This document shows positions 344 to 60,478 of a DNA stretch of 61,176 nt, piece after piece. The DNA comes from Candidatus Hodarchaeota archaeon (GTDB taxonomy: Archaea; Asgardarchaeota; Lokiarchaeia; Sigyniarchaeales; SOKP01), in the NCBI GenBank assembly GCA_048887145.1, contig JBHLKA010000002.1, forward strand, positions 1 to 61,176, in the 5' to 3' direction. The notes beneath the pieces are model-generated. The model was not told where the DNA came from. It saw nothing but the letters and a program-made list of their open reading frames with translations, and searched no databases. The translations under genes were made by a program, and so were the position numbers. Numbering within the stretch: position 1 is the stretch's first letter; the number at the start of each line of letters is the position of its first letter.

Positions 344-631
344 TTACAAATAGAATGAAGGTTTAGTGCTCTTTTTGAACATTTTACGTTTAAATAAGAT
401 GTCTTTTTCTGCTATCAACCAGCAGAGAACATCATAAGGAGGCTTAGAAAAAAATATTCTTGCAGCTCTTTTTCTTACTTTTTCTTTTTGAGGCCTTATA
501 AAGTTGAATTGAATAAATAATTCCCTTTCAGCAAGCATCCAACACAAAGTATCATAAGGATGATTTTTTTGGGAAAGAAAATAGGCAGCAGTGTTAATTT
601 GGTTCTTTAAATCATTGGGTACTTCACTCAT
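344..631 (-). CDS. Hypothetical protein with an internal duplication
   Basis: 95-aa ORF. Two copies of a motif occur about 40 aa apart: HPYDTLCWMLAERELF and PPYDVLCWLIAEKDILF. No family was recognised. Confidence 0.4.
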   Translation of the reverse strand: MSEVPNDLKNQINTAAYFLSQKNHPYDTLCWMLAERELFIQFNFIRPQKEKVRKRAARIFFSKPPYDVLCWLIAEKDILFKRKMFKKSTKPSFYL

Positions 632-783
632 TTTTTCAATAAGAAATATGGTAAACCAGCTTAAAAAATTTATTTATCATGAAAAATCTAATTATCAAAG
701 AAAAGATTATTGAATAATATCAAAAATTGAAAAATAGAAAAACCACTCTAATCTTAAATTAGTTATATTCAATTAATAATGGA

Positions 784-1002
784 ATGAAGTATAAAAGTTT
801 AAATCTTCTGAATTTATCTTCGAAAGAGGATATTAGGGAAAGAAATTGTTTTAGGTGTGGAAAGAAGTTAATTTTTGAAGACTTTTTGAAGAATAAAGGA
901 GTAACTGATAAAGAGGAATTTATTAAAATATGGAATAGCAAATATATAGAATTGTTTTGTTGTCGCTGTTACAATCTAAAAATGAAATATAATTCATTTT
1001 AA
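784..1002 (+). CDS. Small Cys-rich hypothetical protein (possible zinc ribbon)
   Basis: 72-aa ORF with CFRCG...CCRC cysteine pairs. It competes with the antisense ORF 759..941, and neither has strong support. Confidence 0.25.
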   Translation: MKYKSLNLLNLSSKEDIRERNCFRCGKKLIFEDFLKNKGVTDKEEFIKIWNSKYIELFCCRCYNLKMKYNSF

Positions 1003-1110
1003 GATATTTTTTTATTCTCAATTGTCTGATATTAATAAAATAGAAAAATAACATTTAATAACACTCGAAAATAAATTATTGATAAATTCTTATAAAAATA
1101 GTGGGTAATA

Positions 1111-1545
1111 ATGCCAAAGTTAGAAAGAAAAATCGAAATAAAAGCTCCTGTTGAAAAGATTTATGGAATATTAGATAATTATATGGGTTTACCAATATGG
1201 AATATTGTAGTAAAAGATATAGAACAACTTGAGCCAAAGAAGTATTTCATTAAATCAAATGTAGGAGATATAATGAATATAGAGATAGAAAATATTCCAA
1301 ATGAGAGAATGACATCTATCCAAGAAGGAAGTCCTATGGAAAAAATTGGATATATCTTTAAACCTATAGGCGATAAGACTGAGGTTACAATATGGACTGA
1401 ATTTGAATTAGAAAATCAAAGAAGCGTTCTTGATATTGCTGCTGACTTATTTTTGAAGAGTTTAAAGGTGTATGTTGATTATATCATGACAGGCGGAAAT
1501 CCTGAAGATTACAAAAAGGATTTTGAAGAGATTAAGAAAGCATGA
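1111..1545 (+). CDS. SRPBCC (START/polyketide cyclase-like) family protein
   Basis: 144 aa. The N-terminus, KIEIKAPVEKIYGILDNYMGLPIWN, and the overall size are typical of SRPBCC ligand-binding domains. Confidence 0.6.
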   Translation: MPKLERKIEIKAPVEKIYGILDNYMGLPIWNIVVKDIEQLEPKKYFIKSNVGDIMNIEIENIPNERMTSIQEGSPMEKIGYIFKPIGDKTEVTIWTEFELENQRSVLDIAADLFLKSLKVYVDYIMTGGNPEDYKKDFEEIKKA

Positions 1546-1984
1546 AGACATCTCCATAAAAAGTTATATTTTAAAACTCTCTTTTATCCAATAAATATTG
1601 GACTCTAAAACTCTAAAATATTAAAAATTTCTTTTTTATTTTAAGAGATAATTTTTAAATTTTTTTAAGATTAAAATGAGGAGCAAAGTAATTATAATAA
1701 AAAGGGAAGATTGGGAAAATTTAAGAGAATTTAGAAAAACACCGTTTAAGAAAAGGTATTTAGAAATAGTAGAGATGTATAAAATTCTAGAAAATGAACT
1801 CAAAACAGCAATTAAAAATTAAATTCTCAAAATAAAAACTGTTTAGATAAATATTTTAATAAAATTTTTATATATAAAAATTTAAAAATTTTAAATTTAC
1901 TATAAAAGCAGTAAAACAATTTTGATAGAGTAATTTTTCTATTCAAAACAGTAATATTCATTTAAGATTTTACGGGGTTGAGTG

Positions 1985-10990: not shown

Positions 10991-12748
10991 ATGGCTGAAG
11001 AATATGATTATCTTTTTAAATCAATTGTCGTAGGAGATGGAGGCGTTGGTAAGACAGCATTAACACTCCGATTTTCTAAAGGGTTCTTTACTGAGGATTA
11101 TAAAATGACTATAGGTGTTGATTTCCATGTTAAAACTATTTCTATAGATACCTCAGAAGGAACAATTAAATGTAAATTACAACTCTGGGATACCGGTGGA
11201 CAAGAAAGATTTAGCTCAATCAGGCCTATGTATTATAGAGGTTCTTTAGGTGCTGTTTTAGTATTTGATCTTACAAATTACGCCAGCTTTGAACATCTTC
11301 CTCAATGGATTGAAGAAGTTCGTGCCAATATAAAATCCGAAATTCCCCTCTTACTTGTAGGTAATAAAAATGATTTAACCGATCAAAGAACTGTTTCTAT
11401 TGAAGAAATCAATAAATTCACAAGAGATTTCAATCTTTATTATATGGAAACCTCAGCAAAGACAGGTGATGGAGTAGGTGATTGTTTTTATATACTAGCT
11501 TGCCTCATGATTGGATCTGGAGTACCTGAACAGTTAATTAAAAATCAAACTGTCTTTAGTCCTGGACGAATTACTTTAGAGGTAAGTCCAGTATTATTGA
11601 AAGATGTATCTCCACCAGAACCAGAAATTGATTATGCTGCACCACCTGTTCCAGAGCCACCCTCTATAAAGTCACCTGAACCCTCACCTATATTTGAATC
11701 AGAACCAGAAATTGATTATGCTGCGCCACCTGTTCCAGAGCCACCCTCTATAAAATCACCTGAACCCTCACCTATATTTGAATCAGAACCAGAAATTGAC
11801 TATACTGCGCCACCTGTTCCGGAACGACCTTCTGAAAAATCAATTGAACCCGCACCCAAGTATGAATTAGAACCTGAGATAGAAACACCAGAGCTAAGTG
11901 AAATTGAATTTAAAACTCCCGAAGAAATCTTAGCGGAGAAATCTAATGAAACTCAACAGGTTTCTGCTTTTGATAAAATTCTTGAAATAACAGAACCGGA
12001 TTCATACAAACCAAAAGTTGTTCCTTTTTCGGATGCTACCCCTACACCTGCTCCCCGACCAGAAGGATTTCCTGCTATTGAAGGATCAACAGCTCAAAAG
12101 AAGGAAACAAATGTCATTCCACCTTTTCGAGTTACTAAGCAAGAAGAACCCCCAAAACCTAAACCAGCTTCGATGACATTTGAACAACCTCCCGAAAAAA
12201 TTCCAATCACCCCAATGGAAAGTCCAATTTTTCCCTCATCACTACAATCATCTCAAAAATCGAGTAGTCAATCTCTCGTCGATTACATGCCGCAAACAAT
12301 TTTATCAAAGAAAGAAAAGAAAAAACTAGCTAAAGAAAAGAAGAAAAAAGAAAAGGAGAAAAAATTACAAATGGAACGTGAGAAACAAGAAAAATTAATA
12401 GAAGGAATGAAGAAAACAAAGAAAGAGAAGAAAGAGAAAAAGCCAGAAGTATCAGAAACCGCTTCATTATTTCAGACATTAACTCGAAGGACTGAAGGAA
12501 TTACTGGAGAAACAAGTACCACTGTTCTTCCTTTTGTTGCAACAAAAAAAATTGAAGCAGAAGAAACATCGAAATTAAGAATTATTCCAAATGTTGATGA
12601 TATTGAACCAAGTGGTTTTATGCAAATTACTCCACCTGCAAGTAAACAAAAAAAAGAAACTACGCAGGAGTTATTAATCTGTAGGCAATGTGGCGCTACA
12701 TTGTCAGCTGATTATGCTTATTGTAACAAATGTGGTGCTAAACTCTAA
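10991..12748 (+). CDS. Rab-like small GTPase with a ~400-aa repeat/proline-rich/K-E-rich tail and a C-terminal zinc ribbon
   Basis: 585 aa. G1 is GDGGVGKTA, switch I is YKMTIGVDF, G3 is WDTGGQERF, followed by YYRGS..VLVFD, G4 GNKNDL and G5 ETSAKTG. The tail has EPEIDYAAPPVPEPPSIKSPEPSPIFES repeats and a KKEKKK coiled-coil-like stretch. It ends in CRQCG..(11)..CNKCG (12680-12745). Confidence 0.9.
   Translation: MAEEYDYLFKSIVVGDGGVGKTALTLRFSKGFFTEDYKMTIGVDFHVKTISIDTSEGTIKCKLQLWDTGGQERFSSIRPMYYRGSLGAVLVFDLTNYASFEHLPQWIEEVRANIKSEIPLLLVGNKNDLTDQRTVSIEEINKFTRDFNLYYMETSAKTGDGVGDCFYILACLMIGSGVPEQLIKNQTVFSPGRITLEVSPVLLKDVSPPEPEIDYAAPPVPEPPSIKSPEPSPIFESEPEIDYAAPPVPEPPSIKSPEPSPIFESEPEIDYTAPPVPERPSEKSIEPAPKYELEPEIETPELSEIEFKTPEEILAEKSNETQQVSAFDKILEITEPDSYKPKVVPFSDATPTPAPRPEGFPAIEGSTAQKKETNVIPPFRVTKQEEPPKPKPASMTFEQPPEKIPITPMESPIFPSSLQSSQKSSSQSLVDYMPQTILSKKEKKKLAKEKKKKEKEKKLQMEREKQEKLIEGMKKTKKEKKEKKPEVSETASLFQTLTRRTEGITGETSTTVLPFVATKKIEAEETSKLRIIPNVDDIEPSGFMQITPPASKQKKETTQELLICRQCGATLSADYAYCNKCGAKL
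11618..11869 (+). repeat. 84-bp in-frame tandem repeat (two near-identical copies plus one diverged copy) inside the GTPase tail
   Basis: Copies start at 11618, 11702 and 11786 (gaaccagaaattga(t/c)tat(g/a)ctgc...). Copies 1 and 2 differ at only a few positions, and copy 3 diverges after about 40 bp. Confidence 0.85.
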
Positions 12749-34188: not shown

Positions 34189-35202
34189 CTATATATCTTC
34201 AGCGGTTAAATATTTCTTTATCATTTGTAATGCTAGCATTTTAAAAGCATCATCTATATTTTCTCCTGTTTTTGCTGATGTCTCAACATATGATAATTTA
34301 AGTTTTTGGGAAAGGGTTTCGCCTTCTTTAGTTGAAACTAATCTATCATCTTTTAAATCAATTTTATTTCCTACTAATATCAGTGAAATTCTTGGTGAAA
34401 CTTTATTTATCTCATTAAACCAATTTTCAATATTTACAAAAGAAGTTTTATTAGTTACATCAAAAACAAGAATTCCTGCTTCTGCATTGGCTAAGTAAGA
34501 TTGTCTAACTCGCTTAAATTGTGCTTGACCTGCTAGATCCCAAATCACAAAACGTACAGCACTCTGTAACCCTTCAAATCTACATTCTTTTTTCATGATT
34601 GAAGTTCCAATTGTTGATTTGTAATCTTGTGCAAATGTGTTTTCTACGAACCTATGTACCATACTGGTTTTACCCACATTACCATCTCCACCTAATATTA
34701 ATTTAAATGCATACTCTCCAGATTGTATTTTAACTTTTTGGAGTTTATCCACTTTTCTTTGAATATTCTTAGTATCTTTTTTGGTTATTAGTTTTGGGAT
34801 AACTGGACTAACCGATCTTCCGTCAAATATTCTGGCGATTTTTTCAGCGGCTAAATATGCATAAGGAAATATAGGATCAACTCCAGCAATCGCATCTAAT
34901 ATAGTTACAAATACTGCTTCTGGTCCAGCTTCACAAAAAATTAATCTATATTCTTCAGTATCAAAAGTACCTGTTCCAAAAGAACCAGAACTAAACTCTT
35001 CAGTAATTCTTGTTAATACAGGTTCAACTAACGCACTAACGCCTCCCACAATTTCCTCATCTAAAGTTTTTTCAGATGATTTAGCTAAAGCATCAATCAC
35101 TAACCCTTCTCTATTTACAACAAGTACAGCAACTAAATAATCTCCAACATTTTGCGAATACCATTCTAGTAGTGCCTTCAATTTCTTTGTATCAATTGAC
35201 AA
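34189..35202 (-). CDS. Roadblock/LC7 (MglB-like) domain fused to a Rab-like small GTPase
   Basis: 337 aa. The N-terminal ~130 aa, YLVAVLVVNREGLVIDAL...GGVSALVEPV...YRLIFCEAGPEAVFVTILD, is Roadblock-like. In the C-terminal part G1 is GDGNVGKTS, switch I is YKSTIGTSI, G3 is WDLAGQ, G4 is GNKIDL and G5 is ETSAKTG. Confidence 0.85.
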   Translation of the reverse strand: MSIDTKKLKALLEWYSQNVGDYLVAVLVVNREGLVIDALAKSSEKTLDEEIVGGVSALVEPVLTRITEEFSSGSFGTGTFDTEEYRLIFCEAGPEAVFVTILDAIAGVDPIFPYAYLAAEKIARIFDGRSVSPVIPKLITKKDTKNIQRKVDKLQKVKIQSGEYAFKLILGGDGNVGKTSMVHRFVENTFAQDYKSTIGTSIMKKECRFEGLQSAVRFVIWDLAGQAQFKRVRQSYLANAEAGILVFDVTNKTSFVNIENWFNEINKVSPRISLILVGNKIDLKDDRLVSTKEGETLSQKLKLSYVETSAKTGENIDDAFKMLALQMIKKYLTAEDI

Positions 35203-54849: not shown

Positions 54850-54999
54850 TTGCCGATTGATAAAGAATTACAAGAAGAAATTAAGAAAGGGGTTTCTCTC
54901 CAAAAGGTTGATGAGGAAGAAATAAGAAAACGAGAAGAAGAAAAAAAGAAACGCATGGCAGAACTTGAAAAGATTAAAGCAGCCTTAGGAGAAAAATAA
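54850..54999 (+). CDS. Unannotated 49-codon ORF encoding a WH2/beta-thymosin-like peptide
   Basis: Hand translation gives (M)PIDKELQEEIKKGVSLQKVDEEEIRKREEEKKKRMAELEKIKAALGEK. The TTG start follows an in-frame TAG, and AGGAG lies 10 nt upstream (54835-54839). A T-rich tract follows the TAA stop. The pattern L-x3-I-x2-G-x2-L-x-K-V matches the WH2 core spacing. Confidence 0.4.
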   Translation: MPIDKELQEEIKKGVSLQKVDEEEIRKREEEKKKRMAELEKIKAALGEK

Positions 55000-57268: not shown

Positions 57269-57355
57269 TATAAAAAACTAAAAAATATAATTATGTAATA
57301 CCATAAAAAACATACTAGCAATTAATATAAATTATATTTTTATAAATTGATTAAA

Positions 57356-57979
57356 ATGAGTCCTATTATTACACATGAAGATGAGCTTGAATTAGCAAAA
57401 ACCGAAAAAGAGGTAGTAAGTCAGTTAAAGCGATTAGCAAAAGCACAAAATGACCTCATAAATTCTCAAAAAAAATATGCTGAGAACCTTGCTAAAGCAA
57501 ATCTAGTAAGAGAAATGTTAAATAGATCGTTTAGAGACGTCATAAAGCAGATGCAAACCTTACTTAGAGAGAAGAAATCAAATGTTCAAGATGAAGAAGT
57601 AAATTTATATCAAGATATTATTCATAAAAATGATGGCTACATCGAAGTAAACAATAAATATATTGATGCCATAAAAAATCTTACTTTAAAAAAAGAATAT
57701 TTTGTTGAGAAAAAAAATGAATTCGCGGATGCTTTAAGTGATGTAGCAGATAAAAGAAGCTCTGTTATTAAAAAAGCTTTAAGTGTTGAAAAAGTGAAGA
57801 ATAAATTAGTTGAGGGCGAAAAGTTAAAAAAATTAGACGCAGAATTCAATGATTATCAAAGAGATTTTGATATAGCTAGGGATGTACTAATAAAAAAAAT
57901 TCATCAATTTTTAGAGGTAAGAAGCGAGTTAGACGATTTATGGATGATTTTAAAAGATTCAGTATCTAAATCAAGCTAA
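57356..57979 (+). CDS. All-helical ~207-aa coiled-coil protein (BAR-domain-like by size and pattern; unverified)
   Basis: The ORF runs from a TTG at 57347, with an ATG at 57356. The sequence is continuous K/E/L/A-rich heptad-like with no Pro or Gly breaks except at a few predicted turns. The C-terminal block KKLDAEFNDYQRDFDIARDVLIKKIHQFLEVRSELDDLW resembles BAR helix 2-3 patterns. Confidence 0.55.
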   Translation: MSPIITHEDELELAKTEKEVVSQLKRLAKAQNDLINSQKKYAENLAKANLVREMLNRSFRDVIKQMQTLLREKKSNVQDEEVNLYQDIIHKNDGYIEVNNKYIDAIKNLTLKKEYFVEKKNEFADALSDVADKRSSVIKKALSVEKVKNKLVEGEKLKKLDAEFNDYQRDFDIARDVLIKKIHQFLEVRSELDDLWMILKDSVSKSS

Positions 57980-58121
57980 TTTAATCTTTTTATATTTTTT
58001 TATACTTTTTATTTCGAAGAGTTTTAATTCTTACGGACTTAAATTTATTAAACATTTCAAATATATAATTATTAGAAAAATTATTGGATAATTCTTTAAT
58101 TATAAAAATTGAGAATGAAAA

Positions 58122-58586
58122 ATGGCAGAAGAATTTGCAAATTTCATGCAAGAAACTAGAAGGGCTCCTCTTGAAGAAAAGTTAAATGCATTTGGAGATA
58201 TAGTTGAAAGAATGATGTCAATGATTCTTAGAATCCCTGATTTAGTTGATCAATCGTTATTAACTCTGAACCAAAAAATATCAACTTTGGAATCCCGAAT
58301 TAATACATTGAATAATGATATGTCATCAATTAAATCAACTGGAGGAACTGTAACTCCTATGGTATCCGCACCGACTACTCCTAGCAGCATACCCCCACCA
58401 CCTGGCGGTCCCCCTAGCAATTCATCTTTAGGAAGCGCAAGACCACCCCCTGGCGGTCCTCCCCCGCCTCCCGGCGGTCCACCAGGAGGAACTGGAGCTA
58501 ATCGCCCTGCCAGCCCAATTAGTTTAAGAGGCGCTATAATGAGCGAACTTAAACAACTTTTTAATAAACGCAAAACCCAAGATTAA
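58122..58586 (+). CDS. Coiled-coil / proline-glycine-rich / C-terminal amphipathic-helix protein (WASP/MIM-like layout)
   Basis: 154 aa. Residues 1-70 are helical (LNQKISTLESRINTLNNDMSSIK). Residues 83-129 are P/G-rich, with three PPGGPP units (IPPPPGGPP, RPPPGGPPPPPGGPPGG). The C-terminus is LRGAIMSELKQLFNKRKT. The local GC spike creates a mirror ORF on the opposite strand. Confidence 0.65.
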   Translation: MAEEFANFMQETRRAPLEEKLNAFGDIVERMMSMILRIPDLVDQSLLTLNQKISTLESRINTLNNDMSSIKSTGGTVTPMVSAPTTPSSIPPPPGGPPSNSSLGSARPPPGGPPPPPGGPPGGTGANRPASPISLRGAIMSELKQLFNKRKTQD

Positions 58587-58750: not shown

Positions 58751-60478
58751 TTGGAAAGATCTAGTAGTAAAAAAGCTACAAATGATACTGTTAAAGTTGT
58801 CCATGACCTCAAAAGACAAATTTTAGAGATACCCTCTTTAATCAGAGTAATGAACAACTATTACTATAAAAAAAATCAAGTTCAAAATCAAATTAAACCG
58901 ATACTTCTTAAAAGATTTAAAGAAAATTTAAAGATTTTAAAAGATAAGAGAGATTGGCTTCATTCAATACCAACCGCTTTAGATGCATTAAGCGATGATC
59001 TCATTAGCAGAAAAGATTCATTTAAGTTTCCTGATAGTATCATTTTATTCGAAGCTTGGATGAATTTAGGCTATAATGCTCTTTATCCTAAACTTGTCTT
59101 ACATTATAAGTTTCCAGGATTTTTAAAAGGAGAAAAAACAAGACATTTGTTTCAATTTATCTTTTCTACATCTCGTGGTTTTGGATTTCCCATCTATTTT
59201 GGTCCCAAATTTTATGGATATATACTAACATATGGTAAAGTGCTAGAACCAATTTTAAAATGGAGTCATACAGTATGTCATAGAGCAAACCAAGCAATTT
59301 ACCTAGTAGGTAAAAGGTATAATGTTAAAAGACACCATCCGGGAGAATTTGAATCAATAATAATTTCTGAGTATAAAGATAATCTCTATAAAGGTATTGA
59401 TACGCTTTTACATGGTTATTTCACGAAGGATCCAAAAAATTTAGGAAAATTTTCCTCGTTAAAAGAAGTTCTGCAGAATATAACATTTTCTTACTCAATA
59501 GGAGATCACGCTATGAGCATAGAATTAAAACCTACAAACAAAATTTTGAATGTTAATTTAATTACATATGATAAAATAATGGAAAAATATAATGTGGATT
59601 TTTATACCTACATTAAAGAACTAATATCTTTTAAAAAAATACTGATAAACAAAATTTTGTTCTATAAAGATCAAAAAGCATTCCTTAAAAATCAATTAAG
59701 TAAATTAGATAAGCTAAACTTATTTTTAAGTAGATCTAAAAGATTTAAAGTTTCAGCACTTAAATCTTCTAAAAATATTTTTGAAATAGAGAAACTAAAT
59801 CTTTATATTCATGTTATGGAGAAAATTATGGAATTAATCTGGTCAACACCTCTCTATACTCATACTTTACATGCTTTAACGAATAAGGAAAAGAAGTTTT
59901 TGATTCAAAATAAGAAAAGTAAAGAGAATTTGGAACATATGCCTATAGATTCGATTTTTTTATTATGTTTGAAATATTATGAAGAAAAATATAACTTTAA
60001 TTTTGAAGAAGAATATATACTTAAAAAAGTGGATGATTTAAGGGATTTAATGGCAAAAATGTGGTTATATTTCAAAGAACGTCAATTTAACCTTGCAATA
60101 AAAGAATTGAGTGAACTTTCTAAATTATCGATCGAAGATCAAAATTATGATTCAAAAGTAAATGAAATCTTGAATAAACTTATACCAATATTTTCAATTT
60201 ATGAAATATTTAATAGATCTCTATCTGAATCCGTCTATCCTGAATCTATTCCCCACACAGAAAGATTAGGTGCATATATAGCAAGTTTTTTAACCTCAAG
60301 ATATAATATATTTGGTATTAACTTAATGCATCTCTTTAATAGATTAGCATTTTATAATTGGAGCTATTACCTTTCTAAAAATAAATTAAATAGAAAAAAA
60401 TTTTATAATTTCATTTTGAAACTACCAATCTGGAAAAATATTCCCCAAAATATTAAATTAAAGATTTTAAAAAGTTAA
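58751..60478 (+). CDS. Large hypothetical protein (mostly helical)
   Basis: 575-aa ORF with a TTG start. No family was recognised. It is co-oriented with the two preceding genes. Confidence 0.55.
   Translation: MERSSSKKATNDTVKVVHDLKRQILEIPSLIRVMNNYYYKKNQVQNQIKPILLKRFKENLKILKDKRDWLHSIPTALDALSDDLISRKDSFKFPDSIILFEAWMNLGYNALYPKLVLHYKFPGFLKGEKTRHLFQFIFSTSRGFGFPIYFGPKFYGYILTYGKVLEPILKWSHTVCHRANQAIYLVGKRYNVKRHHPGEFESIIISEYKDNLYKGIDTLLHGYFTKDPKNLGKFSSLKEVLQNITFSYSIGDHAMSIELKPTNKILNVNLITYDKIMEKYNVDFYTYIKELISFKKILINKILFYKDQKAFLKNQLSKLDKLNLFLSRSKRFKVSALKSSKNIFEIEKLNLYIHVMEKIMELIWSTPLYTHTLHALTNKEKKFLIQNKKSKENLEHMPIDSIFLLCLKYYEEKYNFNFEEEYILKKVDDLRDLMAKMWLYFKERQFNLAIKELSELSKLSIEDQNYDSKVNEILNKLIPIFSIYEIFNRSLSESVYPESIPHTERLGAYIASFLTSRYNIFGINLMHLFNRLAFYNWSYYLSKNKLNRKKFYNFILKLPIWKNIPQNIKLKILKS

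Follow-up and report, generated by a model that had tools for sequence, protein, structure and literature searches.

A conserved, unannotated gene pair of Loki-type Asgard archaea encodes a protein with a predicted BAR-like fold and a proline-rich protein ending in a nearly invariant peptide

We have analysed a stretch of 61,176 nucleotides (hereafter the window) from the genome of a Candidatus Hodarchaeota archaeon (contig JBHLKA010000002.1, positions 1 to 61,176) and identified in it two neighbouring genes, here called gene 1 and gene 2, which constitute a new, conserved and unannotated two-gene module of Loki-type Asgard archaea. Gene 1 codes for an all-helical protein with a predicted BAR-like fold, and gene 2 for a small protein with a coiled coil, a disordered proline- and glycine-rich linker and a terminal helix. 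As the terminal peptide resembles the actin-filament-binding motif of VASP, coupling of membranes to actin by this pair is plausible. Neither the two genes nor gene 3, the reading frame that follows them, had a significant match in Pfam or NCBIfam. All named homologs of genes 1 and 2 come from Asgard metagenome-assembled genomes (MAGs), where they are annotated as hypothetical proteins only, and most of them carry the label Promethearchaeota, which at NCBI is the phylum of the class Promethearchaeia. No description of either family, or of a BAR-like protein of this type, was found in the searchable literature.

The AlphaFold 2 (AF2) model of gene 1, built on an alignment of 88 sequences, had a predicted local distance difference test score (pLDDT) of 91 and a predicted template modelling score of 0.77. 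It comprises three helices of 65, 71 and 53 residues (7-71, 79-149 and 154-206) connected by two short loops, and not the uninterrupted helix that a preliminary description of the locus had read from the sequence. When the model was compared with the PDB by Foldseek, members of the BAR superfamily (BAR, F-BAR, I-BAR, eisosome, arfaptin and SNX structures) accounted for 42 of the 50 best matches. The top match was arfaptin, with a template modelling score (TM) of 0.62-0.66 over about 200 aligned columns in a full-length alignment; ACAP4 reached 0.62, and further matches included SNX1/SNX5, Pil1/Lsp1, FAM92A, endophilin, amphiphysin, F-BARs and, more weakly, I-BARs. ESCRT-III and PspA, considered beforehand as possible alternative identities of gene 1, were absent from the best 50 matches, and no Snf7/PspA Pfam match was obtained with gene 1 or with diverse members of its family. 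The gene 1 product is thus predicted to adopt a BAR-like monomer fold of three long helices, as the preliminary description had proposed. Its analogy with the I-BAR protein MIM proved weaker: as modelled, gene 1 resembles classical BAR domains (TM 0.62-0.66 for arfaptin) more than I-BAR domains, for which TM was 0.42 (IRSp53, 1wdz) and 0.32 (Dictyostelium IBARa, 4nqi).

Gene 1 is under strong conservation. Homologs at E<=0.01 number 450, the length of the protein is constant at about 207 aa, and the best 120 matches are all at least 71% identical. Mean divergence over 49 genomes is 0.28, compared with 0.34 for Pelota. The N-terminal PIITHEDELEL is invariant among close homologs, and distant members (18-39% identical) keep PI[IV]T.ED, RD..KQME.L.RE, Y.DALKDL, EK.KNK and an invariant Trp196. 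Gene 1 founds a narrow, new sequence family with, according to the model, a BAR-like monomer fold.

The gene 2 family (219 homologs at E<=0.01, 44-95% identical) shares a constant layout of coiled coil, poly-proline block and terminal helix, and here the preliminary description was right. AF2 places helices at residues 2-14 and 17-72, with pLDDT 78-98 over the first 70 residues, and at 132-152; the model had no fold match in Foldseek. The strongly conserved N-terminal helical region may serve as a docking surface, and the linkage of the two genes would suggest gene 1 as a possible partner. It is followed by a heptad coiled coil with L46, L49, I53, L56, I60, L63, M67 and I70 in the a and d positions, which is likely an oligomerisation segment and whose PDB matches were generic coiled coils only.

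The linker contains 20 proline and 12 glycine residues in 59 aa and is encoded by DNA of 62% GC in a window of 29% GC. Three PPGGPP units, already counted in the preliminary description together with the GC-rich block, start at aa 93, 109 and 116, and there are proline runs of four, three and five residues. The longest of these, PPPPP at aa 113 within RPPPGGPPPPPGGPPGG, has glycine on both sides and is kept in homologs, including those of the deeply diverged CR_4-type clade. Linker composition and a PPGGPP..PPPG..GP core are conserved, though the sequence varies among homologs; no tandem repeat was detected in the DNA of the proline block. The C-terminal sequence LRGAIMSELKQLFNKRKT, on the other hand, belongs to a nearly invariant end, RPASPxSLRGAIMGELKxLFxKR, in which L135, R136, G137, A138, I139, E142, L143, K144, L146 and F147 are invariant in 110 aligned sequences. 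The proline block and the terminal helix are thus kept together among the homologs.

The two genes are evolutionarily linked. We have inspected 83 loci of related genomes, 80 of which represent species, and gene 2 follows gene 1 in all those loci whose contig reaches far enough. An insertion of about 2 kb that separates gene 1 from the radical SAM gene in some loci leaves the pair intact. Adjacency in these loci is weak evidence when taken alone, because the whole syntenic block (RtcB ... Pelota, radical SAM, gene 1, gene 2, Elf1) is collinear there. In the CR_4-type clade, with a genome of 45% GC, gene 1 is 29% and gene 2 about 40% identical to the genes of the window; both are still adjacent, now in convergent orientation, on three independent contigs. 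The flanking genes differ and code for AdoMet synthase, another radical SAM protein, a zinc-ribbon protein and Archease. Since adjacency persists, inverted, in a clade so deeply diverged, we argue that genes 1 and 2 act together. The synteny in related Asgard genomes that the preliminary description had put forward for verification is hence real and extends to this distant clade.

The C-terminal peptide of gene 2 deserves special attention. Its terminal helix had been compared to a WH2 motif, an identity which was not upheld. Pfam WH2 (PF02205) was reported for none of 34 family members at E<=10, a cut-off at which HMMER filters may still hide very weak matches, and the L-[KR]-[KR]-[VT] element is absent from the family consensus ...ELKxLFxKRxx (we follow the definition of the LKKT/V-type element in PMC9433394). 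The profile of the motif retrieved no WH2 peptide from the whole PDB, its sole match being a designed coiled coil (E=0.48). In the same test, used as positive control, the profile of a neighbouring micro-open reading frame (micro-ORF) ranked the WH2 peptides of N-WASP and MIM at the top. An alignment with the WH2-like GAB motif of VASP was no better than alignments of shuffled sequences. Judged by its sequence, the gene 2 peptide is not a WH2 motif.

A more promising similarity was found to the F-actin-binding (FAB) motif of VASP. In the human protein GAB occupies residues 223-239 and FAB residues 259-278 (motif sequences from PMC10340426), and WH2-like properties have been proposed for FAB (PMC3034019). 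The ungapped alignment of GAIMGELKQLFAKRK, in which gene 2 is compared with FAB, contains 5 identical and 10 positive positions over 13-15 residues. Its score of 28-32 exceeds that of shuffled sequences (15 +/- 3) and was reached by at most 0.3% of them. In a scan of 1,653 open reading frames (ORFs) of the Asgard loci, 359,000 residues in total, with a fixed 15-residue FAB segment, the first ranks fell to gene 2 homologs with scores of 26-35 (median 32), the best unrelated ORF scoring 26. The resemblance is a lead and no demonstration, because the comparison was chosen after the motif had been seen.

Two other identities were considered for this peptide. The idea of a membrane-targeting amphipathic helix was downgraded because the hydrophobic moment of the terminal helix is low, 0.09-0.17, against 0.57 for the targeting helix of E. 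coli FtsA and 0.27 for that of MinD. The Vps4-binding MIM1 consensus, [DE]xxLxxRLxxL[KR], compared by eye, did not fit.

WH2-type peptides may nevertheless exist in these archaea, in the micro-protein instead of gene 2. The micro-ORF, which the preliminary description had called WH2-like, lies 2.4 kb upstream of gene 1, with Pelota and the radical SAM gene in between. It has 61 distinct homologous products in related loci and is accordingly a real, conserved gene, with the consensus MPxDKELQEEIKKGV[ST]LQKVDExELKKREEEKKKRMEELEKVKEALGxK. The best match of its profile in the whole PDB was the actin-bound tandem WH2 of N-WASP (LqeeIkkGVsLqKvde aligned with LLDQIRQGIQLKKVEQ), with a whole-chain E-value of 6.9e-4 that sums over three repeats, each insignificant alone; a WH2 peptide of MIM was among only five PDB matches. 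Pfam WH2 was not reported for it. Thus, the micro-protein behaves like WH2 in the PDB profile test and, on this similarity, may be a thymosin-like WH2 protein of Asgard archaea. We found no description of a stand-alone Asgard WH2 micro-protein in the searchable literature.

We propose the following mechanism. Gene 1 would be a rigid scaffold of about 200 residues with the three-long-helix BAR fold which, by analogy with BAR domains, would form dimers and attach to curved membrane or sense it. Gene 2 would be an oligomeric adaptor, held in the complex, probably on gene 1, by its N-terminal helices and the heptad coiled coil. Its disordered Pro/Gly arm of about 60 residues, with an estimated reach of up to roughly 15-20 nm if extended, would project the invariant C-terminal helix with its basic tail, and this terminal peptide would dock on a very conserved partner, most likely actin filaments. 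A very conserved partner is implied by the extreme conservation of the peptide. Actin filaments are favoured for this role because the FAB-like motif adjoins a VASP-like proline block, and also because of a published gap in the Asgard actin-assembly machinery (PMC9433394, PMC12050087). The module would thereby tether or organise Lokiactin filaments at membranes, for instance in actin-filled protrusions, and be functionally like IRSp53-VASP or MIM with unrelated sequences. We infer dimerisation, membrane binding, the contact between gene 1 and gene 2 and actin binding alike, and the full mechanism, a BAR-fold scaffold with an adaptor that tethers or organises Lokiactin filaments at membranes, is offered tentatively, being less probable than the sum of its rivals. 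An extended version is rather doubtful: a three-part membrane-actin system of a BAR-fold gene 1, a VASP-like oligomeric gene 2 whose poly-proline arm and FAB-like terminal peptide would capture actin filaments and possibly also profilin-actin, and the thymosin-like WH2 micro-protein.

A number of observations weigh against membrane-actin coupling by the pair. As to the BAR fold, the best Foldseek E-value was 3.2e-3, with none <=1e-3, and 8 of the 50 best matches were non-BAR long helical bundles, including the HpHb receptor, PcsB and Borrelia BBH37. At the sequence level, no Pfam family of the BAR clan (BAR, Vps5, Arfaptin, IMD, FCH and others) matched gene 1 at E<=1, and the most frequent Pfam matches of 16 diverse members consisted of scattered coiled-coil noise without any BAR-clan family. 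In the PDB, neither the sequence nor profiles built from close or diverse members retrieved anything but designed coiled coils and noise. The similarity of the C-terminal third to amphiphysin, put forward in the preliminary description, was undetectable; the PDB profile search did list amphiphysin (3sog), but with E=0.3 and for another segment. When 1.84 billion representative proteins were searched exhaustively with the profile, 40 clusters were obtained, almost all of about 207 aa or shorter fragments, and none formed a bridge to a larger family. In bulk charge the gene 1 protein is near neutral (net +1, isoelectric point 7.8), none of its helices being strongly basic, and its acidic N-terminus does not resemble the H0 helix of N-BAR proteins.

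On the side of gene 2, EVH1 and GAB/WH2 were found neither by Pfam nor by alignment or PDB profile, and its N-terminus is helical; the FAB comparison was picked with the motif in view and covers only about 15 residues. Binding of polyproline is reported to be lacking in some Asgard profilins (PMC9433394), which weakens the actin idea as far as profilin is concerned. Loki profilins are reportedly among the non-binders. Genes for actin, profilin, gelsolin or ESCRT are absent from the window, where the neighbours of the pair are information-processing genes. More distant gene 1 relatives occur without gene 2, and the rates of genes 1 and 2 co-vary positively but not distinctively, with a partial r of 0.38, below the values for unrelated neighbouring pairs such as Pelota and the radical SAM gene (0.59) or gene 1 and Elf1 (0.50).

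Alternatively, the pair may be an adaptor for a hub other than actin, such as ESCRT-III/Vps4, an FtsZ/tubulin homolog, a small GTPase or gene 1 itself, with gene 2 acting like CdvA- or FtsZ-type proteins, in which a flexible linker joins a folded or coiled-coil body to a conserved docking peptide at the C-terminus. An invariant peptide after a variable disordered linker is a general signature of docking motifs and leaves the partner unspecified, the peptide is not WH2, and the window is without cytoskeletal genes, yet contains two Ras/Arf-type GTPases. Moreover, one gene 1 relative (locus L087) lies in divergent orientation beside an Arf-family GTPase, and the best structural match of gene 1 is arfaptin. 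Arfaptin binds Arf, Arl and Rac GTPases. The GTPase neighbour is, however, a single case, the motif does not fit the MIM1 consensus by eye, and a specific similarity to docking peptides for partners other than actin was not detected, the FAB motif of VASP being the sole above-chance similarity found. We regard an adaptor of this kind as about as probable as the actin mechanism, with the odds leaning against either.

The gene neighbourhood speaks for a housekeeping coiled-coil pair unrelated to membranes, in which the BAR likeness would be generic and the role one in information processing or chaperone-like. The pair sits in the block RtcB ... Pelota, radical SAM, gene 1, gene 2, Elf1; that of the CR_4-type clade is beside Archease, RtcB and TFIIB; and some distant relatives of gene 1 come immediately after L37ae and Pcc1, in the same orientation. 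The marginal Foldseek E-values, the matches to non-BAR bundles and the lack of a BAR sequence signal agree with it as well. Gene order in archaeal housekeeping clusters is, however, a weak guide to function, and a BAR share of 42 among the 50 best structural matches, together with the full-length alignment to arfaptin, counts against it. Translation and RNA-repair factors are not known to carry an extended Pro/Gly arm that ends in an invariant peptide, and we consider a housekeeping role unlikely. Still less probable is a membrane skeleton free of actin, a lattice of genes 1 and 2 in which the gene 2 helix would be a membrane-targeting helix of the FtsA/MinD type and the arm a spacer. A C-terminal helix with a basic tail after a flexible linker would suit such a lattice, as would the BAR-like fold of gene 1, but the hydrophobic moments given above do not, and near-invariant R, G, A, E and K across homologs of 44-95% identity fit a specific protein interface better than lipid binding.

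Comparison with known systems places both proteins near eukaryotic membrane and actin factors without equating them. Like classical BAR proteins (arfaptin-2, ACAP4, SNX1/SNX5, FAM92A, Pil1/Lsp1), gene 1 would have about 200 residues in three long antiparallel helices, a likeness that rests on a predicted monomer model. It differs from them as a stand-alone archaeal protein without detectable sequence or profile similarity and with an acidic, invariant PIITHEDE at the N-terminus in place of the amphipathic H0 helix. What has so far been reported as BAR proteins from Asgard archaea are homologs of Vps5-BAR, sparsely distributed and often fused to Vps28 in Thorarchaeia (Eme et al. 2023, PMC10307638). 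These are likewise BAR-type helical proteins proposed in Asgard archaea; gene 1, in contrast, has no Pfam Vps5 match and no Vps28 fusion and is conserved across the Loki-type loci examined.

With Ena/VASP, gene 2 would share an oligomerising coiled coil, a Gly-flanked G-PPPPP-G and a short FAB-like helix with a basic cluster. The FAB motif of VASP lies downstream of GPPPPP repeats, and the gene 2 motif comes within about 15 residues after the G-PPPPP-G block. However, gene 2 has only 154 aa and lacks EVH1, GAB and WH2, and its heptad-type coiled coil is N-terminal (aa 46-72), whereas the tetramerisation coiled coil of VASP is C-terminal; the likeness is at the level of motifs and was drawn post hoc. 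MIM/MTSS1 and IRSp53 follow the same proposed logic, in which a BAR scaffold is coupled with a proline-rich factor whose terminal peptide binds actin, but I-BAR domains match gene 1 worse, the terminus of gene 2 is not WH2 and the functions reside on two separate genes.

Recurrent weak profile matches connected the gene 2 coiled coil with the baculovirus families NPV_P10 (28 of 34 members) and Baculo_PEP_C (13 of 34). In baculovirus P10, too, a coiled coil occurs along with a proline-rich segment, and the C-terminus is basic. The matches score 17-24 bits, below the curated cut-off of 38, and cover only residues ~20-71; homology to PEP_C/P10 was rejected and the similarity is one of coiled coils. 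Weak hints at CCDC53/WASH and BimA were rejected too as non-recurrent; of the 34 members, CCDC53 matched only 4, with E>=0.018.

Asgard archaea build actin-filled protrusions, and their known actin regulators are profilins and gelsolins (PMC9433394, PMC12050087); the machineries that nucleate actin filaments remain undiscovered (PMC9433394). A BAR-fold protein tied to a FAB-like poly-proline protein would provide concrete candidates for the missing membrane-actin link. If true, the three-part system would be the first archaeal machinery for actin assembly or tethering beyond profilin and gelsolin, and would parallel, in prokaryotes, the IRSp53-VASP/MIM logic by which eukaryotes drive protrusions. 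The idea is directly testable in vitro and by localisation, since the two proteins are small and look soluble and related archaea have been cultured. Even without an actin partner, the pair is a new, strongly conserved two-gene module in the closest prokaryotic relatives of eukaryotes, with a predicted BAR-like fold that sequence-based surveys of eukaryotic signature proteins would miss.

Table 1 Features of the gene pair and other elements of the window mentioned in the text
Feature	Position	Strand	Description	Evidence
Gene 1	57356..57979	+	207-aa all-helical protein, predicted BAR-like three-helix bundle	ORF call, homologs, AF2
Spacer	57980..58121	+	142 bp, AT-rich, between genes 1 and 2	direct sequence reading
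Gene 2	58122..58586	+	154 aa	ORF call, homologs, AF2
Gene 2, aa 1-45	58122..58256	+	conserved N-terminal helical region, MAEEFxxF..aPlEEKlnaFGDIvEkmm..LRIPDLVDqsl	alignments, AF2
Gene 2, aa 46-72	58257..58337	+	heptad coiled coil	direct sequence reading; AF2 pLDDT >90
Gene 2, aa 73-131	58338..58514	+	disordered Pro/Gly linker PPGGPPPPPGGPP	AF2 pLDDT <50
Gene 2, aa 132-154 and stop	58515..58586	+	C-terminal helix and basic tail, P.SLRGAIM[GS]ELK.LF.[KR][RK]	alignment, AF2 helix 132-152
Gene 3	58751..60478	+	575 aa, basic (net +36)	ORF call
Micro-ORF	54850..54999	+	49 aa, WH2-like core ELQEEIKKGVSLQKVDE	homologs, PDB profile match
Small GTPase	10991-12748	+	585 aa, multidomain, Ras/Roc/Arf-type domains	
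Small GTPase	34189-35202	-	337 aa, multidomain, Ras/Roc/Arf-type domains	
Antisense ORF	58250-58573	-	107 aa, GGPPGG-rich, mirror of the gene 2 proline block	

The window is AT-rich and archaeal. Our ORF calls for the pair agree with the preliminary description in position, strand and spacing. A TTG at 57347 is an alternative possible start of the gene 1 ORF; the ATG at 57356 is the likely one, because all homologs begin with M[SCT]PIITHEDE. T-runs immediately follow the gene 1 stop codon, and a TATA-like TTTAATTATAAAAA lies about 15-25 nt upstream of the gene 2 ATG, strings which are frequent by chance at 29% GC. From these signals, separate transcription of gene 2 is possible. A consensus scan of the spacer found no hairpin terminator and no sigma-70-type signal above background, a result that is uninformative for an archaeon.

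Pelota and the radical SAM gene precede the pair; gene 3 and then the convergent Elf1 gene follow it. Gene 3 had been suggested to belong to the same unit. The full-length gene is missing from 28 of the 69 loci among L001-L083 that reach Elf1, and there Elf1 comes directly after gene 2 or after a short remnant; because of this absence gene 3 is not obligate for the module. We regard it as a variable insertion; it has no sequence relative in the PDB. The rest of the window carries housekeeping genes, among them those for RNA polymerase B, PolD, Cdc6, PAN, Cbf5, NrdD, RtcB and CDP-archaeol synthase. The two multidomain small GTPases are of a kind typical of Asgard genomes, and their non-GTPase portions had no Pfam match. 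The antisense ORF opposite gene 2 was rejected as a gene and is a compositional artefact of the GC-rich proline block.

Distant relatives of gene 1 were seen in several other settings. In L088, L089, L092 and the contig with P0252, the genes for ribosomal protein L37ae and Pcc1 (KEOPS) are directly followed, on their own strand, by a gene 1-like gene (22-32% identical), and gene 2 is absent from the vicinity. The relative mentioned above beside a GTPase gene is P0250 (34% identical); in L087 the two genes of this divergent pair occupy 475-1008 (-) and 1271-1897 (+), and the GTPase is of the Arf/Ras family. A 344-aa relative, P0256 (L085, 6001-7035, +), has a 148-residue N-terminal extension with a CxxC motif (CRTC) fused to the gene 1-like domain, among unrelated neighbours (CxxCxxCC, CoA ligase).

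Two of the collinear loci, L023 (DATKTW010000134.1) and L057 (JAHWGK010000103.1), are on contigs deposited as 'Candidatus Nanopelagicaceae bacterium' and 'Thermoplasmata archaeon', respectively, and others bear Odin-, Thor-, Hermod- and Hodarchaeota labels at 64-93% identity. The oddly labelled contigs are probably mis-binned or carry loose MAG labels. In CR_4-type genomes, a protein of 136-139 aa (L094, 6426-6845, +; L091, 1809-2219, -) is encoded directly adjoining gene 2; its N-terminus is disordered and rich in Lys and Pro, its C-terminal part is a zinc ribbon (C..KKCNY..CPKCGN), and in the window the zinc-ribbon gene Elf1 is likewise near the pair.

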